64,000 bases of DNA from Candidatus Kerfeldbacteria bacterium (GCA_043813585.1 JBDRKW010000020.1:129185-193184); one strand, 5' to 3'; shown: positions 9,289 through 15,398, counted from the stretch's first letter. Numbers and translations are program-made. Notes: a model not told the origin generated them from the sequence alone.

Positions 9289-10567
9289 TATTAAATATAT
9301 TCGCGACCATGCGGAAGATGTGAAGCTGAATGCAACGCATCGCAACATTGATGTTGATATTTCTCTCCTGCTGGAACTCGATGAGCAGCTGCGCAGCCAT
9401 GTACAGCAGGTAGAGCAGCTGCGTGAGGAACGAAATACGAACGCAGAAGCGCTGAAAGGAAGCGAAGATAAAGAATCAAAGGTAGCAAAGGAGCATATTC
9501 AGCGCGGCAAGGAACTGAAAAAGGAAATTGCTGCCAGTGAAGCCGAAATCGAAAAACTTCGCGCAGAATTGCAGCCGCTGCTGGAAGCTGTTCCCAACCT
9601 GACGCATCCGGGCGTGCCTGTCGGCAAAGATGATGCTGATAATAAAGAACTCAAACAGATCGGCGCAATCCCGGAATTTGATTTCGAGATCAAGGACCAT
9701 GTCGAATTAGGCAAATCGCTCGATATCCTTGATTTTGACCGCGGTTCGGAAGTCGCCGGTTCTGGCTTTTACTTTGTGAAGAACGAAGCGGCAGTCATGG
9801 ACCTTGCACTCCAGCAATTTGCGTTCGACCGCTGCCGCGCCAACGGATTCACTCCGATGATCACGCCGGACATTGCATACCAAGAAATCCTGCGCGGTAC
9901 AGGCTTCAATCCAAGGGGGGATGAAAAGCAGATCTATAATATTGAAGGGACGGATTTATCCCTTATTGCAACATCAGAAATCACCGTTGCCGGCTATTTC
10001 AAAGACCGCATCTTCAAGAAGGGCGAACTGGATGCGCCGATAAAAATCGTCGGCCTCTCGCACTGTTTCAGGACAGAGGCGGGTGCGTACGGCCGTGAAT
10101 CACGCGGATTATATCGCGTCCACCAATTCACAAAAGTGGAGATGTTCATTATTTGCAAACCGGAAGATTCGGAAGCGCAGCATGAACATCTGCTGGAGAT
10201 GGAAGAAGAAATATTGCAGGAACTGAAAATCCCGTATCGCGTTGTTGACTGCTGCACCGGCGACCTGGGCGGGCCGGCGTTCAGAAAATACGACATTGAA
10301 GCATGGATGCCGTTCAAGGATTCCTGGGGTGAGGTTACCTCAACATCAAATTGTACGGACTACCAGGCGCGCAGGCTGAACATCAAATATGAAGCAGGTT
10401 CCGGAAAGAAGGAATACGTACACACACTTAACGGAACAGCCGTAGCGCTATCGCGCGTTCCAATTGCAATCATAGAAAACTTCCAACAAAAAGACGGGAC
10501 AGTCGCTATTCCGGATGCACTCCAACCGTATACGTTCGGCGTGACGGCAATTGAATTGAAGAGCTAG
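9281..10567 (+). CDS. serS: Seryl-tRNA synthetase
   Basis: MLDIKYIRDH start, N-terminal coiled-coil arm, class II motifs (GFYFVKNEAA, HCFRTEAG, GTAVALSR). Confidence 0.9.
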   Translation: MLDIKYIRDHAEDVKLNATHRNIDVDISLLLELDEQLRSHVQQVEQLREERNTNAEALKGSEDKESKVAKEHIQRGKELKKEIAASEAEIEKLRAELQPLLEAVPNLTHPGVPVGKDDADNKELKQIGAIPEFDFEIKDHVELGKSLDILDFDRGSEVAGSGFYFVKNEAAVMDLALQQFAFDRCRANGFTPMITPDIAYQEILRGTGFNPRGDEKQIYNIEGTDLSLIATSEITVAGYFKDRIFKKGELDAPIKIVGLSHCFRTEAGAYGRESRGLYRVHQFTKVEMFIICKPEDSEAQHEHLLEMEEEILQELKIPYRVVDCCTGDLGGPAFRKYDIEAWMPFKDSWGEVTSTSNCTDYQARRLNIKYEAGSGKKEYVHTLNGTAVALSRVPIAIIENFQQKDGTVAIPDALQPYTFGVTAIELKS

Positions 10568-11607
10568 TATCCGCGCTTGATGCGCCGTGCAGTTTCAATC
10601 ACTTTTGTCATTGTATATTTCCACGAAAGGGGATAGTCCTGGCAGTGGAGCAGGTCAAGCTGGCTTCCGCCAAATCCCATTTTGAATTTAGAAAGTCCTA
10701 TCCACGGATGCTTCCGCTTGAGGAAAGTGGATACCTGTTTTGATTCGGGAACGATGCCCCAAAAATTATACTGCGTACACCCTCGCTCTTTCGCTTCCTT
10801 GATTGCTTCCCATTGAATCAGGTATGAGGCGGGAATGCGGTTATATTCGGATAACGAAGCTCCATGATGATAGGAAGCCATATCGCCGTAATACATCATT
10901 ATGGCCGCAGAAATGGGCTTATTTTCGTATTCACCGATAAATACCTCCACTTGACCGTCTGTGGCAAATGCACGCACCTGAGCGCGAAAATAGTCGTCTG
11001 TGTAGGGCACAAATCCATGGCGCTGAACTGTTTCCTGGTGAATATCGATAAATGCCTGGACAGATTCGTCACTGGTACTTTTCTTTATCACCACACCGTC
11101 CTTGCTTGCGCGACGAACAAGATTGCGCATGGTTTTTCGCATGCCTTTCATCAGTTCATCTTCGGTGCCCGATATGTCCATCCACCAGATATTTTCCGCA
11201 AGCATGTGAATGGGCGCGTCTTTCCACCCAATGGAATGATAGAGTTCCTTGTTCTCGGGTGAGTTCATGATAAACGGCGATGAGCGTAGAAAATCTGCGT
11301 TCAGTTTCTTACCAAAATCTTTCACGTACGTCGTGAATTCGTTCAGATGCTTCCATTCGTCGCGCCTAAACACAGGGCCATAGGGCATAAACAGATAGGT
11401 GCCCCGCTTAGCTTTCACGAGCGTTGCGAATGCAACTCCGATGAGATCGTCACCCTTAAGGATCTCAAAAAGATATGGGTCCTCACCAACTTTCTCGTGA
11501 AGCTGCTTCATGTTCCATGACTGCAGAAAAGGCGGCCGAGAGACGCTCATTAGGAACTGTTCCCAGCGTTCCTTCGATTCTGATTCTCGAATGATAATGT
11601 CGGACAT
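10564..11607 (-). CDS. FemAB-family aminoacyl-tRNA-dependent peptidoglycan peptidyltransferase (FemX/MurM-like)
   Basis: 347 aa. Sequence pattern of the FemAB family (PF02388-like GNAT duplication): PPFLQSWNMKQ..., YLFMPYGPV, SYLIQWEAIKEAKERGCTQYNFWG. Its stop codon overlaps the serS stop as CTAG. Confidence 0.75.
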   Translation of the reverse strand: MSDIIIRESESKERWEQFLMSVSRPPFLQSWNMKQLHEKVGEDPYLFEILKGDDLIGVAFATLVKAKRGTYLFMPYGPVFRRDEWKHLNEFTTYVKDFGKKLNADFLRSSPFIMNSPENKELYHSIGWKDAPIHMLAENIWWMDISGTEDELMKGMRKTMRNLVRRASKDGVVIKKSTSDESVQAFIDIHQETVQRHGFVPYTDDYFRAQVRAFATDGQVEVFIGEYENKPISAAIMMYYGDMASYHHGASLSEYNRIPASYLIQWEAIKEAKERGCTQYNFWGIVPESKQVSTFLKRKHPWIGLSKFKMGFGGSQLDLLHCQDYPLSWKYTMTKVIETARRIKRGY

Positions 11608-11609
11608 AC

Positions 11610-12872
11610 CTATTGGTAGAATTCTTTAATAGTTTCAATCACATCGTGAGCGTCCTGCTCAGTCGTCTGTATATTTGTCGGCAGATTTACGACCGTTCTT
11701 GCCGCTGCTTCAGCCACGGAGCAGCTGCCTTTCGCATAATGAACAGCCTCCATGTTCGATCCCGGCGGTGCAATAACCGGGTCATACCAGTCACCCAGCA
11801 ATATGCCGCGTTGCTTCGCAAAGGCAACAAGTTCATTGCGCCGTTTTACTTGGATTGTATAGCGCAGCAATGCTGATTTGGCATTCGGCTGAAATACTGG
11901 CAACTGAATGCCTGGGGCGTCATTAAGTTTGCTCGCATAGAGGTCAGCCAGCCGCTGCCTATGTTCCTGCATTTCCTCAAGGACACTCATCTGTGCCACT
12001 GCCGCAGCTGCCATTGCATTTGGCAGGCGGTAGCCCTTTTGCTGCTTCGCTTCCTTTTTTTCTGCTGCAAATAAAACAAGCGGGAATAAACGAATTTTTT
12101 TTGAAACAGCAATAATAATCTTCCCAAGCGAACCGACGTAATAAAAGCGGATTCCCAGAGCAAAGAGCAGGGGATGCAGCAGCCGCTGTTTAATCCAAAT
12201 ATGCGACGGAAACCGCAAACCGAGCCAGTAGTTATTCAGATGCTGCGCGATCTCAGCATCATTTGTAATTGCCATCCCGCCGGACACCGCTGAAATCACC
12301 TTATCGCGTCCGAATGAAAACATCGCGGCCTGGCCAAATGTACCGACGAGCATGCCGTTAACAGTCGCTCCAAGAGAATGTGCGCAATCCTCAATAAGAG
12401 TAACGCCGTGTGAAGTGCAAATCTCCTGAATGCGCTCTATCTGCGCCGGCTGTCCAAACGTATGCTGCACGATGACAGCGCGTATCTTCTTCGACTGGTC
12501 AAGCTTCTTTTCCAAATCAACCGGATCAAGGTTGTAGGTATTGTCAATATCCACATACACCGGCTTGCCATTGGCAGCAATGATGGCATTCGGCACTACA
12601 ACACAGGTAAATGACTGCATTGCCACCTCATCACCTTCCTGTAGATCAAGCGCATCGAGTAATGCATACAATGCTATCCGGCCCGAGCTGAATGATCGCG
12701 CAAAAGAGACTGAAAATTTGCGCTTGAACAAATCATCAAGTTCAGATAGCGCTCGGCCTTTGCGCCACATAAACCAGCGATACGGGTTGATAAGCCAATA
12801 CAATGCGCGTTTCACGTCCTGAGGGCGCGCGTTAGGTGATAAATGAGGCGATATTGGTCGTTTTGCTGGCAT
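11610..12872 (-). CDS. DegT/DnrJ/EryC1/StrS-family PLP-dependent sugar aminotransferase with hydrophobic insertion
   Basis: GDEVAMQSFTCVVVPNAI, DIDNTYNLD, HTFGQP, SFGRDKVIS (PLP lysine) and SGGMAITND are typical of DegT. An approximately 60-aa hydrophobic insert (FPSHIWIKQRLLHPLLFALGIRFYYVGSLGKIIIAVSKKIRLFPLVLFAA) replaces the usual short linker. Confidence 0.75.
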   Translation of the reverse strand: MPAKRPISPHLSPNARPQDVKRALYWLINPYRWFMWRKGRALSELDDLFKRKFSVSFARSFSSGRIALYALLDALDLQEGDEVAMQSFTCVVVPNAIIAANGKPVYVDIDNTYNLDPVDLEKKLDQSKKIRAVIVQHTFGQPAQIERIQEICTSHGVTLIEDCAHSLGATVNGMLVGTFGQAAMFSFGRDKVISAVSGGMAITNDAEIAQHLNNYWLGLRFPSHIWIKQRLLHPLLFALGIRFYYVGSLGKIIIAVSKKIRLFPLVLFAAEKKEAKQQKGYRLPNAMAAAAVAQMSVLEEMQEHRQRLADLYASKLNDAPGIQLPVFQPNAKSALLRYTIQVKRRNELVAFAKQRGILLGDWYDPVIAPPGSNMEAVHYAKGSCSVAEAAARTVVNLPTNIQTTEQDAHDVIETIKEFYQ

Positions 12873-12876
12873 GATA

Positions 12877-14508
12877 TTATTTTTCAGTGCCGGTCAGGTA
12901 GGAAAAGATCGCATCCTGGACACGTCCCTCAATAAGCACGACATCATCTGAGGTAAAATTTGATAACACGCTACTGATCAATTTTTTTGGCCTGTCGTTC
13001 ACGATAATGTTGCCTGCCTGCATGCCGCCCTGCTTTGCAGCATCGCGAAGCGGTTTTGCAAAATCCTTCTTCGTGATAATGAGCTGGTCCACGGTCTTGG
13101 CAAGATAGGTACCGACATTTCGATGGTGCTTGTCCGTTTCAACGCCAAGCTCCTGCATTCCCGGGGTGATGACTATTTTTTTCTTGTCCTCGAACTGGGT
13201 AAGATAGTCTACAGCCGCCATAAACCCATCCGGATTCGAATTGTAATGGTCGTCGATCACGTAGAAGTGGTTTCGACCGTTCAATAAGTGCATTGTCCCT
13301 TCTACAGGCTTCAGTTTTTTAATGCCCTCAGCAATATCCTCAATAGACATGCCCAGGTGATCTGCAGCAGTTGCCGCAGCCAGAATAGAGGAGATAACCT
13401 GCTCGCCATGGAGTGATGTTCGCACAACAGCAGAACGCTTTCCTATGTGAAGCATAAATTGAACTGCGTGGGGCTCAACTTCAATATCTGTCGCATAGGT
13501 ATGCGCCACATCCTGAGTAGAAAACAATTTTAGTTTCGCCTCTGTTTGTTTTGATGCCTCAACGCATGAAGAAATATCTTTATTTACAACTGCAAGGCCT
13601 GTTTTCGGCAGCGACGCAAGTAGCTCCGCTTTTGTATTGCGGATGGCCTCCAGGCTGCCGAACAACGCAAGATGCTGCTCATTGATTGCCGTTAAAATTC
13701 CGATAATCGGTGACGTCAGGTCGCAAATTGCATCAATTTCACCCGGGCGATACGCCCCCATCTCGACAATAAATACTTCATGTTCATCCGTCAGCGAACT
13801 AAGTATGGTCTGCGCCACGCCAATATCAACATTGACATTCTTGGGCGTTGAAATGGTTTTAAACCGTTGATCAAGGATGGTTTGCAGAAATTGCTTGGTT
13901 GATGTTTTTCCGTAACTACCTGTAATACCGATGACTGTCGGGCTCAGCGATGCGAGCTTTTCCTTTGCACTTCGAATAATGCGCTGTTTCTGAACGGAGG
14001 CCAGCGGCTGGAAAAGCAGGACAATAAACGTTGCCGTCAAAGGAATGAGCAAAACCGCAATAATCATCGATAAAAAAGATCCGGTGTAAATACCAATGAC
14101 ATACGCGATTATAATGGAAATAAGCGGTGAGAGAATCGACAGCAACATAGCCTTCGACGTCCATGTAGGAAATACCCGCCAGCGAAGGTAGCGCACCAGC
14201 TCCAGCAGTAAAAACGCAAAAAATAAATAAACAAGCGTGTTGAACAGCAACGAGTTTGCGATATCGATGTACACACTATCCCAGTAGGCAACCAGCCAAA
14301 TGATTAAAAATGCAATTTCAATAAACGTCCAGACATTGAGAGTCGCACGTTTTCCGGAACGGGTTGTCAAAAAATCAACCATGCGATCGGTGCGATACTC
14401 CTTGAGTTGCCAGATATAAATCCAATAAACATTTTTCAGGCCAATGAGCAGCAGGAAGATCAGGATTTGAATCGTTAAAATGAATATTGTCAGAAATTCA
14501 CCATCCAT
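12877..14508 (-). CDS. Membrane-anchored Mur-ligase family protein (MurF-like central and C-terminal domains; N-terminal domain replaced by about 5 TM helices)
   Basis: Residues 1 to about 175 are polytopic membrane. Then come a Mur ligase P-loop (IGITGSYGKTSTK), a central domain, and a MurF-like C-terminal domain (IDDHYNSNPDGFMAAVDYL, ITPGMQELG). Confidence 0.75.
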   Translation of the reverse strand: MDGEFLTIFILTIQILIFLLLIGLKNVYWIYIWQLKEYRTDRMVDFLTTRSGKRATLNVWTFIEIAFLIIWLVAYWDSVYIDIANSLLFNTLVYLFFAFLLLELVRYLRWRVFPTWTSKAMLLSILSPLISIIIAYVIGIYTGSFLSMIIAVLLIPLTATFIVLLFQPLASVQKQRIIRSAKEKLASLSPTVIGITGSYGKTSTKQFLQTILDQRFKTISTPKNVNVDIGVAQTILSSLTDEHEVFIVEMGAYRPGEIDAICDLTSPIIGILTAINEQHLALFGSLEAIRNTKAELLASLPKTGLAVVNKDISSCVEASKQTEAKLKLFSTQDVAHTYATDIEVEPHAVQFMLHIGKRSAVVRTSLHGEQVISSILAAATAADHLGMSIEDIAEGIKKLKPVEGTMHLLNGRNHFYVIDDHYNSNPDGFMAAVDYLTQFEDKKKIVITPGMQELGVETDKHHRNVGTYLAKTVDQLIITKKDFAKPLRDAAKQGGMQAGNIIVNDRPKKLISSVLSNFTSDDVVLIEGRVQDAIFSYLTGTEK

Positions 14509-14509
14509 A

Positions 14510-15322
14510 TTACTTGTTTAAAAAGGGGATTAATGCTTGAGCAATTTGTGCTGCATGCGTCTTATGAATACCGTGGCGTCCATCATTAAATAGCGTCAAC
14601 TGTGCCTGCTTCATGGCGGATTGCATCTGTTCACCGTCTGAAAAGGGTACATAAGTGTCGTCTTTCCCCCAAAAAATATGGATCGGTGCTGTAATCGATG
14701 ATAGACAACCTTTTAGATCCTCATCCACAACTCGAGAAAACGATTCTTTCATCACACCTTCAGCTGCAAGATAATCCTGCGCGCCAATACTTTTATAACC
14801 AAGGGATCGCACAATTGGCAGTAACGGCTTTAACGGAGCAATGCTTAAAATCTTCTTCAGTGTTTTAGCAACAAATCCTATAGTTTCTTTCGACCTTGTT
14901 TCGTGTTTTATTCCGGCAGGTGCGATGAGAGCTGCACGCTGGAATATGTCCGCTTTGCGTGCCAATAATTTAAGTGCAACACGGCCGCCAAACGAGTGGA
15001 TGACTAATTCTGGCCGTGAAATGTGCATATTCGCTAAATATTTTACGACGCATTCTGCATAATCGTCTACACCCCATGCGGAGGGCGGGGGAGCACTCTC
15101 TCCAAAGCCGGGAAAATCGAGGGCATAAAAGGTACTTTTCGATCCGGCATCTCGCAGCGCTTGGAACAACGGCTGGAATGACAGCGCATCTCCACCCCAG
15201 CCATGCAAAAAAAGGACCGGATTTGAACCGTCTCCGTCCTGTATATATGAAATTGTTCCGCTATCAAGCTTTATGCTTTTTCGAATACCAGTCATAACGC
15301 GATTATACATGCATTCAAGCAT
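14510..15322 (-). CDS. Alpha/beta-fold hydrolase
   Basis: HGWGG oxyanion motif, GxSxG nucleophile elbow (HSFGG), 270 aa. Last gene of the cell-envelope operon. Confidence 0.7.
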   Translation of the reverse strand: MLECMYNRVMTGIRKSIKLDSGTISYIQDGDGSNPVLFLHGWGGDALSFQPLFQALRDAGSKSTFYALDFPGFGESAPPPSAWGVDDYAECVVKYLANMHISRPELVIHSFGGRVALKLLARKADIFQRAALIAPAGIKHETRSKETIGFVAKTLKKILSIAPLKPLLPIVRSLGYKSIGAQDYLAAEGVMKESFSRVVDEDLKGCLSSITAPIHIFWGKDDTYVPFSDGEQMQSAMKQAQLTLFNDGRHGIHKTHAAQIAQALIPFLNK

Positions 15323-15398
15323 AAAATCTACCAGAAATCGGATAACATTTCAAGTCTGCTCATTGCGGCAAACGCCTGAATATCATACAATACTGTAG

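Follow-up and report, generated by a model that had tools for sequence, protein, structure and literature searches.

A conserved helical insert in a Patescibacterial DegT-fold enzyme encoded between a membrane-bound Mur ligase and a FemAB transferase: active-site lid or membrane anchor?

Why does a pyridoxal 5'-phosphate (PLP) enzyme with the fold of sugar aminotransferases carry a hydrophobic-rich insert, and why is it encoded next to a Mur ligase with membrane segments of its own? The question is raised by a gene of a Candidatus Kerfeldbacteria bacterium (GCA_043813585.1, JBDRKW010000020.1:129185-193184), located in a stretch of 64,000 nucleotides that was analysed as a whole and is referred to below as the window. 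The gene lies on the minus strand at 11610..12872, the coordinates given in a preliminary description of the locus, and its open reading frame (ORF) encodes 420 amino acids. That description regarded the insert as a monotopic or re-entrant membrane hairpin. The present analysis leads to a different answer. With modest confidence, the insert is taken here to be a folded lid of the active site, or a specificity subdomain, that shapes a new pocket for the substrate and not a membrane-spanning anchor, the PLP enzyme acting in a membrane-proximal assembly on peptidoglycan precursors.

Pfam score, catalytic residues and fold all place the DegT enzyme in the DegT/DnrJ/EryC1/StrS family. The profile PF01041 (DegT_DnrJ_EryC1) was matched with 223.7 bits (cut-off 19.8, E-value 5.4e-66) in two separate stretches, residues 36-213 and the C-terminal part. 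The catalytic lysine K191 and the aspartate D162 were found at their canonical positions, invariant in an alignment of 118 sequences and aligned with those of solved enzymes; the counterpart of D162 in Spr1654 is Asp170 (PMC5936713). The structure predicted by AlphaFold2 has an overall predicted local distance difference test score (pLDDT) of 96.8, and its top Foldseek match is GDP-perosamine synthase 3bn1 (E-value 3.4e-29; template modelling score 0.75 when normalised to the query and 0.86 when normalised to the target). In the same way, a phmmer search against all PDB chains retrieved QdtB, perosamine synthase, DesV, WbpE, ArnB and PseC-type enzymes, the best at 1.5e-31. The Pfam match, the PDB alignments, the invariant K191 and D162 and the Foldseek result thus bear out the earlier statement that the PLP fold and the catalytic lysine are intact, and the peptide strings quoted in that description were all located in the ORF: SFGRDK (residues 186-191), SGGMAITND (197-205) and LLHPLLFALGIRFYYVGSLGKIIIAVS..LFPLVLFAA (231-270).

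None of the NCBIfam equivalog cut-offs for PseC, LegC, WecE, ArnB, DesI and RfbH was reached by the DegT enzyme; the highest scores were obtained for LegC (179, cut-off 420) and PseC (170.5, cut-off 423.5), the others staying far below their thresholds. The closest solved structures, namely Per (3bn1/3dr4), QdtB (3frk) and the archaeal or metagenomic sugar transaminases 7b0d and 7b0m, share with it the fold-type I PLP fold and the C-terminal domain, as well as the Schiff-base lysine in SFxxxK, the aspartate of E-D-x-A and the Y-R-x-x-N motif that comes after the loop, present here as Y281-R282-L-P-N285 directly after the insert. However, identity to this group is only 19-26%, and the DegT enzyme differs from it by the insert of 51 residues after the post-lysine helix, by the invariant and subfamily-specific residues R65, R189 and D190 that adjoin the cofactor site, and by a genomic context of MurF and FemAB genes instead of sugar-nucleotide pathway genes. 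Judged from its sequence, the gene product is a DegT-fold PLP enzyme that is competent for catalysis, and it belongs to an uncurated subfamily that is found across Patescibacteria.

The insert was delimited by alignment with solved DegT enzymes, in which the query was matched up to about residue 213 and again from about residues 267-280 in every printed alignment, the middle being left unmatched. For instance, query residues 213 and 267 correspond to residues 209 and 213 of QdtB, and query residues 211 and 280 to residues 208 and 231 of perosamine synthase (phmmer). This amounts to approximately 46-55 extra residues. The insertion proposed earlier is therefore real and has no match in solved DegT enzymes, but it measures about 51 residues (222-272) and not about 60. 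In the AlphaFold2 model it is folded with a pLDDT of 95-98 and comprises helices at 224-242, 249-259 and 269-274, an aromatic turn between the first two and an extended return segment at 260-268. The LFPLVLFAA stretch (262-270), which had been assigned to a pair of hydrophobic helices, is mostly non-helical in the model.

Relatives of the enzyme number in thousands, and the best 120 are full-length proteins of approximately 405-435 residues with 41-55% identity. The insert was present in all homologues of two alignments of 26 and 118 sequences, the latter covering the 41-55% identity range, and its length was 50-52 residues in 118/118, so that its conservation in orthologues, which the preliminary description had proposed to verify, was confirmed. 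Among these 118 sequences, conservation reaches 84% for W226, 85% for Q229, 91% for L231, 98% for H233, 95% for P234 and 92% for F237 and, further along, 99% for Y244, 98% for G250, 86% for K251 and 100% for E271, K272 being conserved as well. Position 258 is Q, K or R in 97% (Q 66%, K 21%, R 10%) and position 259 is K or R in 88%. Overall, conservation does not differ between the insert and the remainder of the protein, the mean column entropy being 1.83 in both.

Two trivial origins were considered and rejected. A sequencing or assembly artefact, or a frameshift translated into hydrophobic nonsense, deserves practically no credence, since all 118 homologues and 84 independent loci carry the insert, which contains invariant residues and has a confidently predicted structure; its absence or disruption in relatives, named beforehand as the sign of such an artefact, was not observed. 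The insert is not a known domain either. Searched alone it gave no Pfam match at E<=10 and only chance-level PDB matches (E-values 1.6 and 3.4), and the known soluble subdomain that had been envisaged as a counterpart was not found in these databases. A profile made from the insert only, run against 1.84 billion (1.84e9) representative proteins, returned 392 matches, 145 of them at E<=1e-10. Among the 150 matches listed, the motif always stood at a position consistent with a DegT-type enzyme (about residues 205-285 of full-length proteins), shifted in fragments and fusions. With 392 representatives in 1.84 billion proteins, the insert is a clean sequence signature for finding the system.

What the insert replaces is instructive. 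In the sugar aminotransferase Spr1654, residues 235-248, located 36-49 positions after the catalytic Lys199, form a flexible region that is not conserved among family members (PMC5936713). In Spr1654 and ArnB this region becomes ordered upon ligand binding, and it has been proposed to help bind the carboxylate of the amino donor (Arg229 in ArnB) and the nucleotide diphosphate (PMC5936713). Moreover, the active sites of sugar aminotransferases are cavities at the dimer interface built by both subunits (PMC5936713). Counted from K191, the same offset of 36 to 49 residues designates residues 227-240 of the DegT enzyme, within the insert. Between the post-lysine helix and Y-R-x-x-N, the short flexible substrate-gating loop is not present and a conserved helical element of 51 residues is found instead. 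The view that a mere short linker had been replaced is thus to be revised, as the corresponding region is the flexible substrate-binding loop of sugar aminotransferases (PMC5936713). The gating region and the insert are alike in their offset from the catalytic lysine and in their placement, predicted in the case of the insert, at the active-site mouth and dimer interface, and the gating region is the element that varies with substrate in sugar aminotransferases (PMC5936713). They differ in that the Spr1654 region has about 14 residues, is disordered without ligand and is not conserved, whereas the insert has 51 residues, a fixed length, a strongly conserved sequence and a confidently predicted fold.

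Coevolution gave a second view of this placement. Mean-field direct coupling analysis (DCA) was carried out on 285 family sequences (effective number of sequences, Meff, 257) over 420 columns, and its top pairs recovered contacts of the fold used as controls (84-130, 58/60-200, 84-107 and 339-394). Within the insert, pairs 240-254 (rank 22), 236-257 and 243-256 describe an antiparallel hairpin, and pair 230-264 (rank 12) folds the segment 260-268 back onto the first helix. The insert is also coupled to the body of the enzyme by pairs 266-361 (rank 15), 184-267 (43) and 267-371 (56) and, at weaker ranks, by 197-264 (73), 92-266 (86) and 190-266 (102). Its partners are the residues flanking the catalytic lysine, the 88-95 segment and a loop of the C-terminal domain, residues 264-267 being predicted to pack on 184, 190, 197, 90-92, 361 and 371. 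In parallel, the pairs 8-241 (rank 42), 28-249 (77) and 37-227 (82) connect the insert to the N-terminal arm. This pattern of predicted contacts is what would be expected of a lid covering the mouth of the active site and the dimer interface, and it is from the literature mapping together with coevolution that we infer where the insert sits in three dimensions.

The favoured reading can then be formulated as follows. The short flexible substrate loop of sugar aminotransferases would have been replaced by a rigid helical hairpin and return segment with a fixed length of 51 residues. This element would sit at the active-site mouth and dimer interface, packed on residues near the catalytic lysine, on the C-terminal-domain loop and on the N-terminal arm, and it would supply near-invariant polar residues (H233, Y244, K251 and E271/K272) within a hydrophobic frame. 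Such polar residues in such a frame suggest a specificity lid or subdomain and therefore not a membrane-spanning anchor.

The same contacts could be read in terms of protein-protein interaction. The insert would then mainly serve as an interface, either as an extension of the homodimer or as a docking site for the transmembrane (TM) MurF-type ligase and/or FemAB encoded next to it, with little substrate binding. This is compatible with the role of the corresponding region in the dimer interface of sugar aminotransferases, with the DCA pairs tying the insert to the N-terminal arm (an arm that, in enzymes of this fold, reaches over to the partner subunit), with the variable hydrophobic surface of the insert, and with the gene fusions and strict synteny described below, which imply a physical complex. 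Nevertheless, near-invariant His, Tyr, Lys and Glu residues that persist over such deep divergence point to ligand binding or catalysis more than to an interface, and the DCA contacts reach the flanks of the catalytic lysine (184, 190 and 197). A role that is mainly that of an interface is consequently judged unlikely, but an interface and a lid are not mutually exclusive.

The hypothesis of a membrane hairpin was addressed by hydropathy, computed with the Kyte-Doolittle scale in a 19-residue window (KD19), the TM helices of the adjacent Mur ligase serving as positive control. The maximum of the whole DegT enzyme is 1.79, at residues 252-270, a segment that holds K258, K259 and R261, as compared with 2.25-2.84 for the TM segments of the ligase. 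Across the homologues the median KD19 maximum is 1.52, and values of at least 1.6 are reached by only 41%. Over the family, the 51 positions of the insert include a median of 8 charged residues; the longest uncharged run in the insert is about 11 residues, against 20-54 in the TM block of the control ligase. Its enrichment in hydrophobic columns is modest (37% vs 29% elsewhere). A classical TM or re-entrant hairpin was rejected on the grounds of KD19, charges and short uncharged runs, and the hydropathy check proposed in the preliminary description gave values below the TM level.

A looser version of the same idea is that the insert is a monotopic, interfacial or re-entrant anchor by which a normally soluble nucleotide-sugar aminotransferase would be held at the cytoplasmic side of the membrane. 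The insert is rich in hydrophobic residues, with short all-hydrophobic stretches at 231-241 and 252-257, and K251 flanks its aromatic turn (YYxF); its variable positions stay hydrophobic, a conserved His-Pro pair occupies the middle of the first helix, the products of the neighbouring genes act at the membrane, and two fifths of the homologues do pass the hydropathy value given above. The aromatic turn at 244-247, K251 and the variable hydrophobic positions are traits compatible with an interfacial patch. Monotopic enzymes with a re-entrant helix, such as the PglC-type phosphoglycosyl transferases, offer a comparison for this mode of membrane association, as they share with the insert a hydrophobic helix-turn-helix, a conserved proline within a helix and basic residues nearby. 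Against this, the hydrophobic runs of the insert are too short and are broken by conserved charges, and the insert lies within the chain, takes the place of a catalytic loop and shows coevolution with active-site residues. Its near-invariant polar positions, fixed length and confident model likewise speak against an anchor, as do the three charges in its best hydropathy window, and DCA places much of it against the protein body. An anchor of this kind is held to be improbable, and the monotopic or re-entrant hairpin of the preliminary description finds no support in hydropathy, charges, length, invariant polar residues or coevolution with the active site. It is possible that an exposed hydrophobic face of the insert touches the membrane or a lipid-linked substrate.

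Further evidence comes from the genes around the DegT enzyme. In the window, four genes lie on one strand in the order alpha/beta-hydrolase, TM-MurF, DegT and FemAB, separated by gaps of 1, 4 and 2 nucleotides. The ligase scored 260 bits against the murF profile TIGR01143 (cut-off 288.6; profile positions 63-405) and only 25 bits against MurT. It matches TIGR01143 from position 63 onwards because its uridine diphosphate (UDP)-binding N-domain is replaced by about 170 residues with TM segments. The neighbour is thus indeed a membrane Mur ligase, as reported before, with 4-5 true TM segments. The cassette is surrounded in the window by mreB, mreC, a class B penicillin-binding protein (PBP), greA, two aminoacyl-tRNA synthetases, an FtsQ-type POTRA protein and an M23 peptidase, and no other Mur ligase was found within these 64 kb.

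The same four genes in the same order were found beside homologues in Kerfeldbacteria, Colwellbacteria, Gracilibacteria and an unclassified Patescibacterium. In the latter (locus L003), the cassette lies within a division and cell wall (dcw) cluster, between a PBP gene and mraY-ftsW-murG, where the TM-MurF ligase fills the murF slot. Among GTDB species representatives, at least 591 genomes carry a DegT relative, and the best 80 loci belong essentially all to Patescibacterial lineages. The full collinear cassette was observed in 63 of 84 loci. Taken singly, MurF adjoins the DegT gene in 74 of them and FemAB does so in 73, while the hydrolase occurs in 70, and about half of the incomplete loci were cut by contig ends. 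Other loci carried partial cassettes despite enough flanking DNA: in L005 and L006 the alpha/beta-hydrolase is directly followed by DegT, and in L007, L011, L023, L073 and L082 a DegT-FemAB pair lacks MurF and hydrolase upstream. The module is therefore not invariant, and such variants could help to dissect which partners the PLP enzyme needs.

Seven fusions were encountered among the listed matches of the insert profile, four of DegT with FemAB (P0132, P0170, P0188 and P0236; 747-769 residues) and three of MurF(TM) with DegT (P0175, P0203 and P0241; 915-959 residues). They consist of full-length domains joined end to start, the insert is kept in all, and the TM block is kept in the MurF fusions. 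A strict regular expression for the insert motif missed several of them, the profile matches and the sequences showing that the insert is retained. Each fusion type was seen in several clusters at 50% identity. Such fusions speak in favour of partners that form one unit, both physically and functionally, and from gene order and fusions the DegT enzyme very probably works next to the membrane. What can be kept of the membrane association suggested earlier is accordingly this work close to the membrane, supported indirectly by the operon and by fusions with a TM Mur ligase, and not the insert as a hairpin. Moreover, in the lineages where the enzyme is already tethered through its TM fusion partner the insert is kept unchanged, and it is therefore not merely an anchor. 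The cytoplasmic motif WQxKEYRxDR of the ligase was detected in at least 26 of the 84 loci with a strict regular expression, as well as in all three MurF-DegT fusions. As regards the ligase itself, its features suggest that Patescibacteria may carry out the addition of D-Ala-D-Ala at the membrane.

MurT provides a precedent for such an architecture: acting on lipid II, this Mur-type ligase has no UDP-binding N-domain, since the domain would clash with the membrane (PMC6113224). In Staphylococcus aureus, MurT/GatD and FemXAB modify the stem peptide after the soluble Mur steps, and Fem transferases act on lipid II (PMC6113224). TM-MurF and MurT are both Mur-type ligases devoid of this domain, but TM-MurF is MurF-like and has a TM block of its own, and the MurT/GatD and FemXAB systems contain no PLP enzyme, unlike the Patescibacterial cassette. 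By analogy with MurT, a lipid-linked substrate is plausible for TM-MurF and, by extension, for the PLP partner that is fused to it.

The PLP enzyme, the TM-anchored MurF-type ligase and FemAB would thus take part in a membrane-proximal assembly acting on peptidoglycan precursors; these are plausibly lipid-linked, which would account for the greasy nature of the lid. A more specific and more doubtful proposal, which we regard as tentative, is that in a membrane-bound Patescibacterial assembly a peptidoglycan precursor linked to lipid is itself the substrate of the PLP enzyme, the greasy lid of 51 residues forming a pocket for the membrane-embedded substrate. The reaction could be a transamination or an epimerisation of a free amine on the stem peptide or cross-bridge; alternatively, the PLP enzyme could make an amino group that FemAB then acylates. 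The invariant R65, R189 and D190, together with H233, Y244, K251 and E271 of the lid, could equally suit a peptide- or amino-acid-type substrate. Complex formation, the role in peptidoglycan and the lipid-linked substrate are what we infer from these data.

A more conservative explanation would see in the DegT enzyme an ordinary soluble nucleoside diphosphate-sugar aminotransferase for an envelope glycan, the insert being a functionless decoration of the lineage and the adjacency to MurF and FemAB a case of operon hitch-hiking. The fold and the top matches are indeed those of sugar aminotransferases, loops at the position of the insert vary among family members, and a family 2 glycosyltransferase (GT2) follows the cassette in locus L001. 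Yet the collinear order extends over three quarters of the loci and many Patescibacterial lineages, independent fusions occurred in both directions, the insert is as conserved as the catalytic core, and the conserved cassette has no dehydratase or oxidoreductase to make a keto-sugar. This explanation is considered very improbable.

Several points weigh against the lid and its role on peptidoglycan precursors. The assignment to peptidoglycan draws only on synteny and fusions. No keto-sugar-forming partner (dehydratase or oxidoreductase) was found in the four-gene cassette or its immediate flanks in L001-L004; such a gene could lie elsewhere in the genome. In addition, a Meff of 257 for 420 columns makes DCA ranks beyond about 60 weak and tentative, and DCA cannot separate contacts within a subunit from contacts between subunits. 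Finally, the hydrophobic positions of the insert are more variable than those elsewhere in the protein (entropy 1.85 vs 1.32, Mann-Whitney p=8e-4), and such positions are also compatible with a surface that faces lipid, faces a partner or is loosely packed.

Patescibacteria, or Candidate Phyla Radiation (CPR), make up a large share of bacterial diversity. To our knowledge, their cell-wall chemistry is essentially uncharacterised, and we know of no role for a PLP enzyme between MurF and FemAB in the textbook peptidoglycan pathway. No description of the subfamily, the insert or the cassette was found in the literature library searched. The conserved module of TM-MurF, PLP enzyme and FemAB suggests an undescribed step of Patescibacterial cell-wall precursor synthesis, for which the DegT enzyme is a concrete and testable candidate, possibly along with late Mur steps sited at the membrane. 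If it does act on a lipid-linked precursor, this would be a PLP-dependent step on peptidoglycan precursors without described counterpart. H233, Y244, K251 and E271 are obvious targets for mutagenesis.

Table 1. Coordinates of the DegT enzyme, its insert and the surrounding cassette in the window.
Feature	Position	Strand	Basis
DegT/DnrJ/EryC1/StrS-fold PLP enzyme, insert-bearing Patescibacterial subfamily	11610..12872	-	ORF of 420 aa, PF01041, Foldseek
K191 codon (catalytic Schiff-base lysine, SFGRDK)	12300..12302	-	invariant in 118 sequences; aligned to solved DegT enzymes
D162 codon (E-D-x-A motif), Asp expected to pair with the PLP pyridine nitrogen	12387..12389	-	invariant; role from family knowledge
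51-residue insert (aa 222-272)	12057..12209	-	no counterpart in PDB alignments; fixed length; pLDDT 95-98; DCA hairpin pairs
Return segment (IRLFPLVLF, aa 260-268), a predicted wall of the active-site pocket	12069..12095	-	DCA pairs; non-helical in model
Alpha/beta-hydrolase, first cassette gene	14510..15322	-	Abhydrolase_1 2.8e-21; in 70/84 loci
MurF-type ligase, UDP-binding N-domain replaced by ~170-aa membrane block; upstream neighbour	12877..14508	-	Mur_ligase_M and Mur_ligase_C; TIGR01143
N-terminal membrane block of the ligase, aa 1-170, 4-5 TM segments, WQxKEYRxDR after the first	13999..14508	-	
FemAB-family aminoacyl-tRNA-dependent transferase, downstream neighbour	10564..11607	-	PF02388 4.9e-37
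Promoter-like site (TTGAAA-17-TAGATT, with TG) immediately before the first cassette gene	15325..15353	-	consensus match only

The other features of the cassette are listed in Table 1. The alpha/beta-hydrolase showed weak NCBIfam similarity to esterases, lipases and BioH-like enzymes. Regarding taxonomy, the records L008, L011, L020, L023, L026, L036 and L078, counted as carrying the full cassette, and the protein P0011 bear the labels Pacearchaeota, Methylomirabilis, Gammaproteobacteria, Chloroflexota or Thermoplasmatota. Wrong labels or wrong binning of contigs in metagenome-assembled genomes are the probable cause, and not true occurrences outside Patescibacteria.

Finally, the cumulative GC skew computed over the window (1-64000) climbs until about 8-10 kb, from where it declines steadily as far as the window end. 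The turn coincides with the point where mostly plus-strand genes give way to mostly minus-strand ones, at the convergent ends of the SerRS and FemAB genes (10564-10567, overlapping by 4 nucleotides), and it may correspond to a replication-related strand switch.

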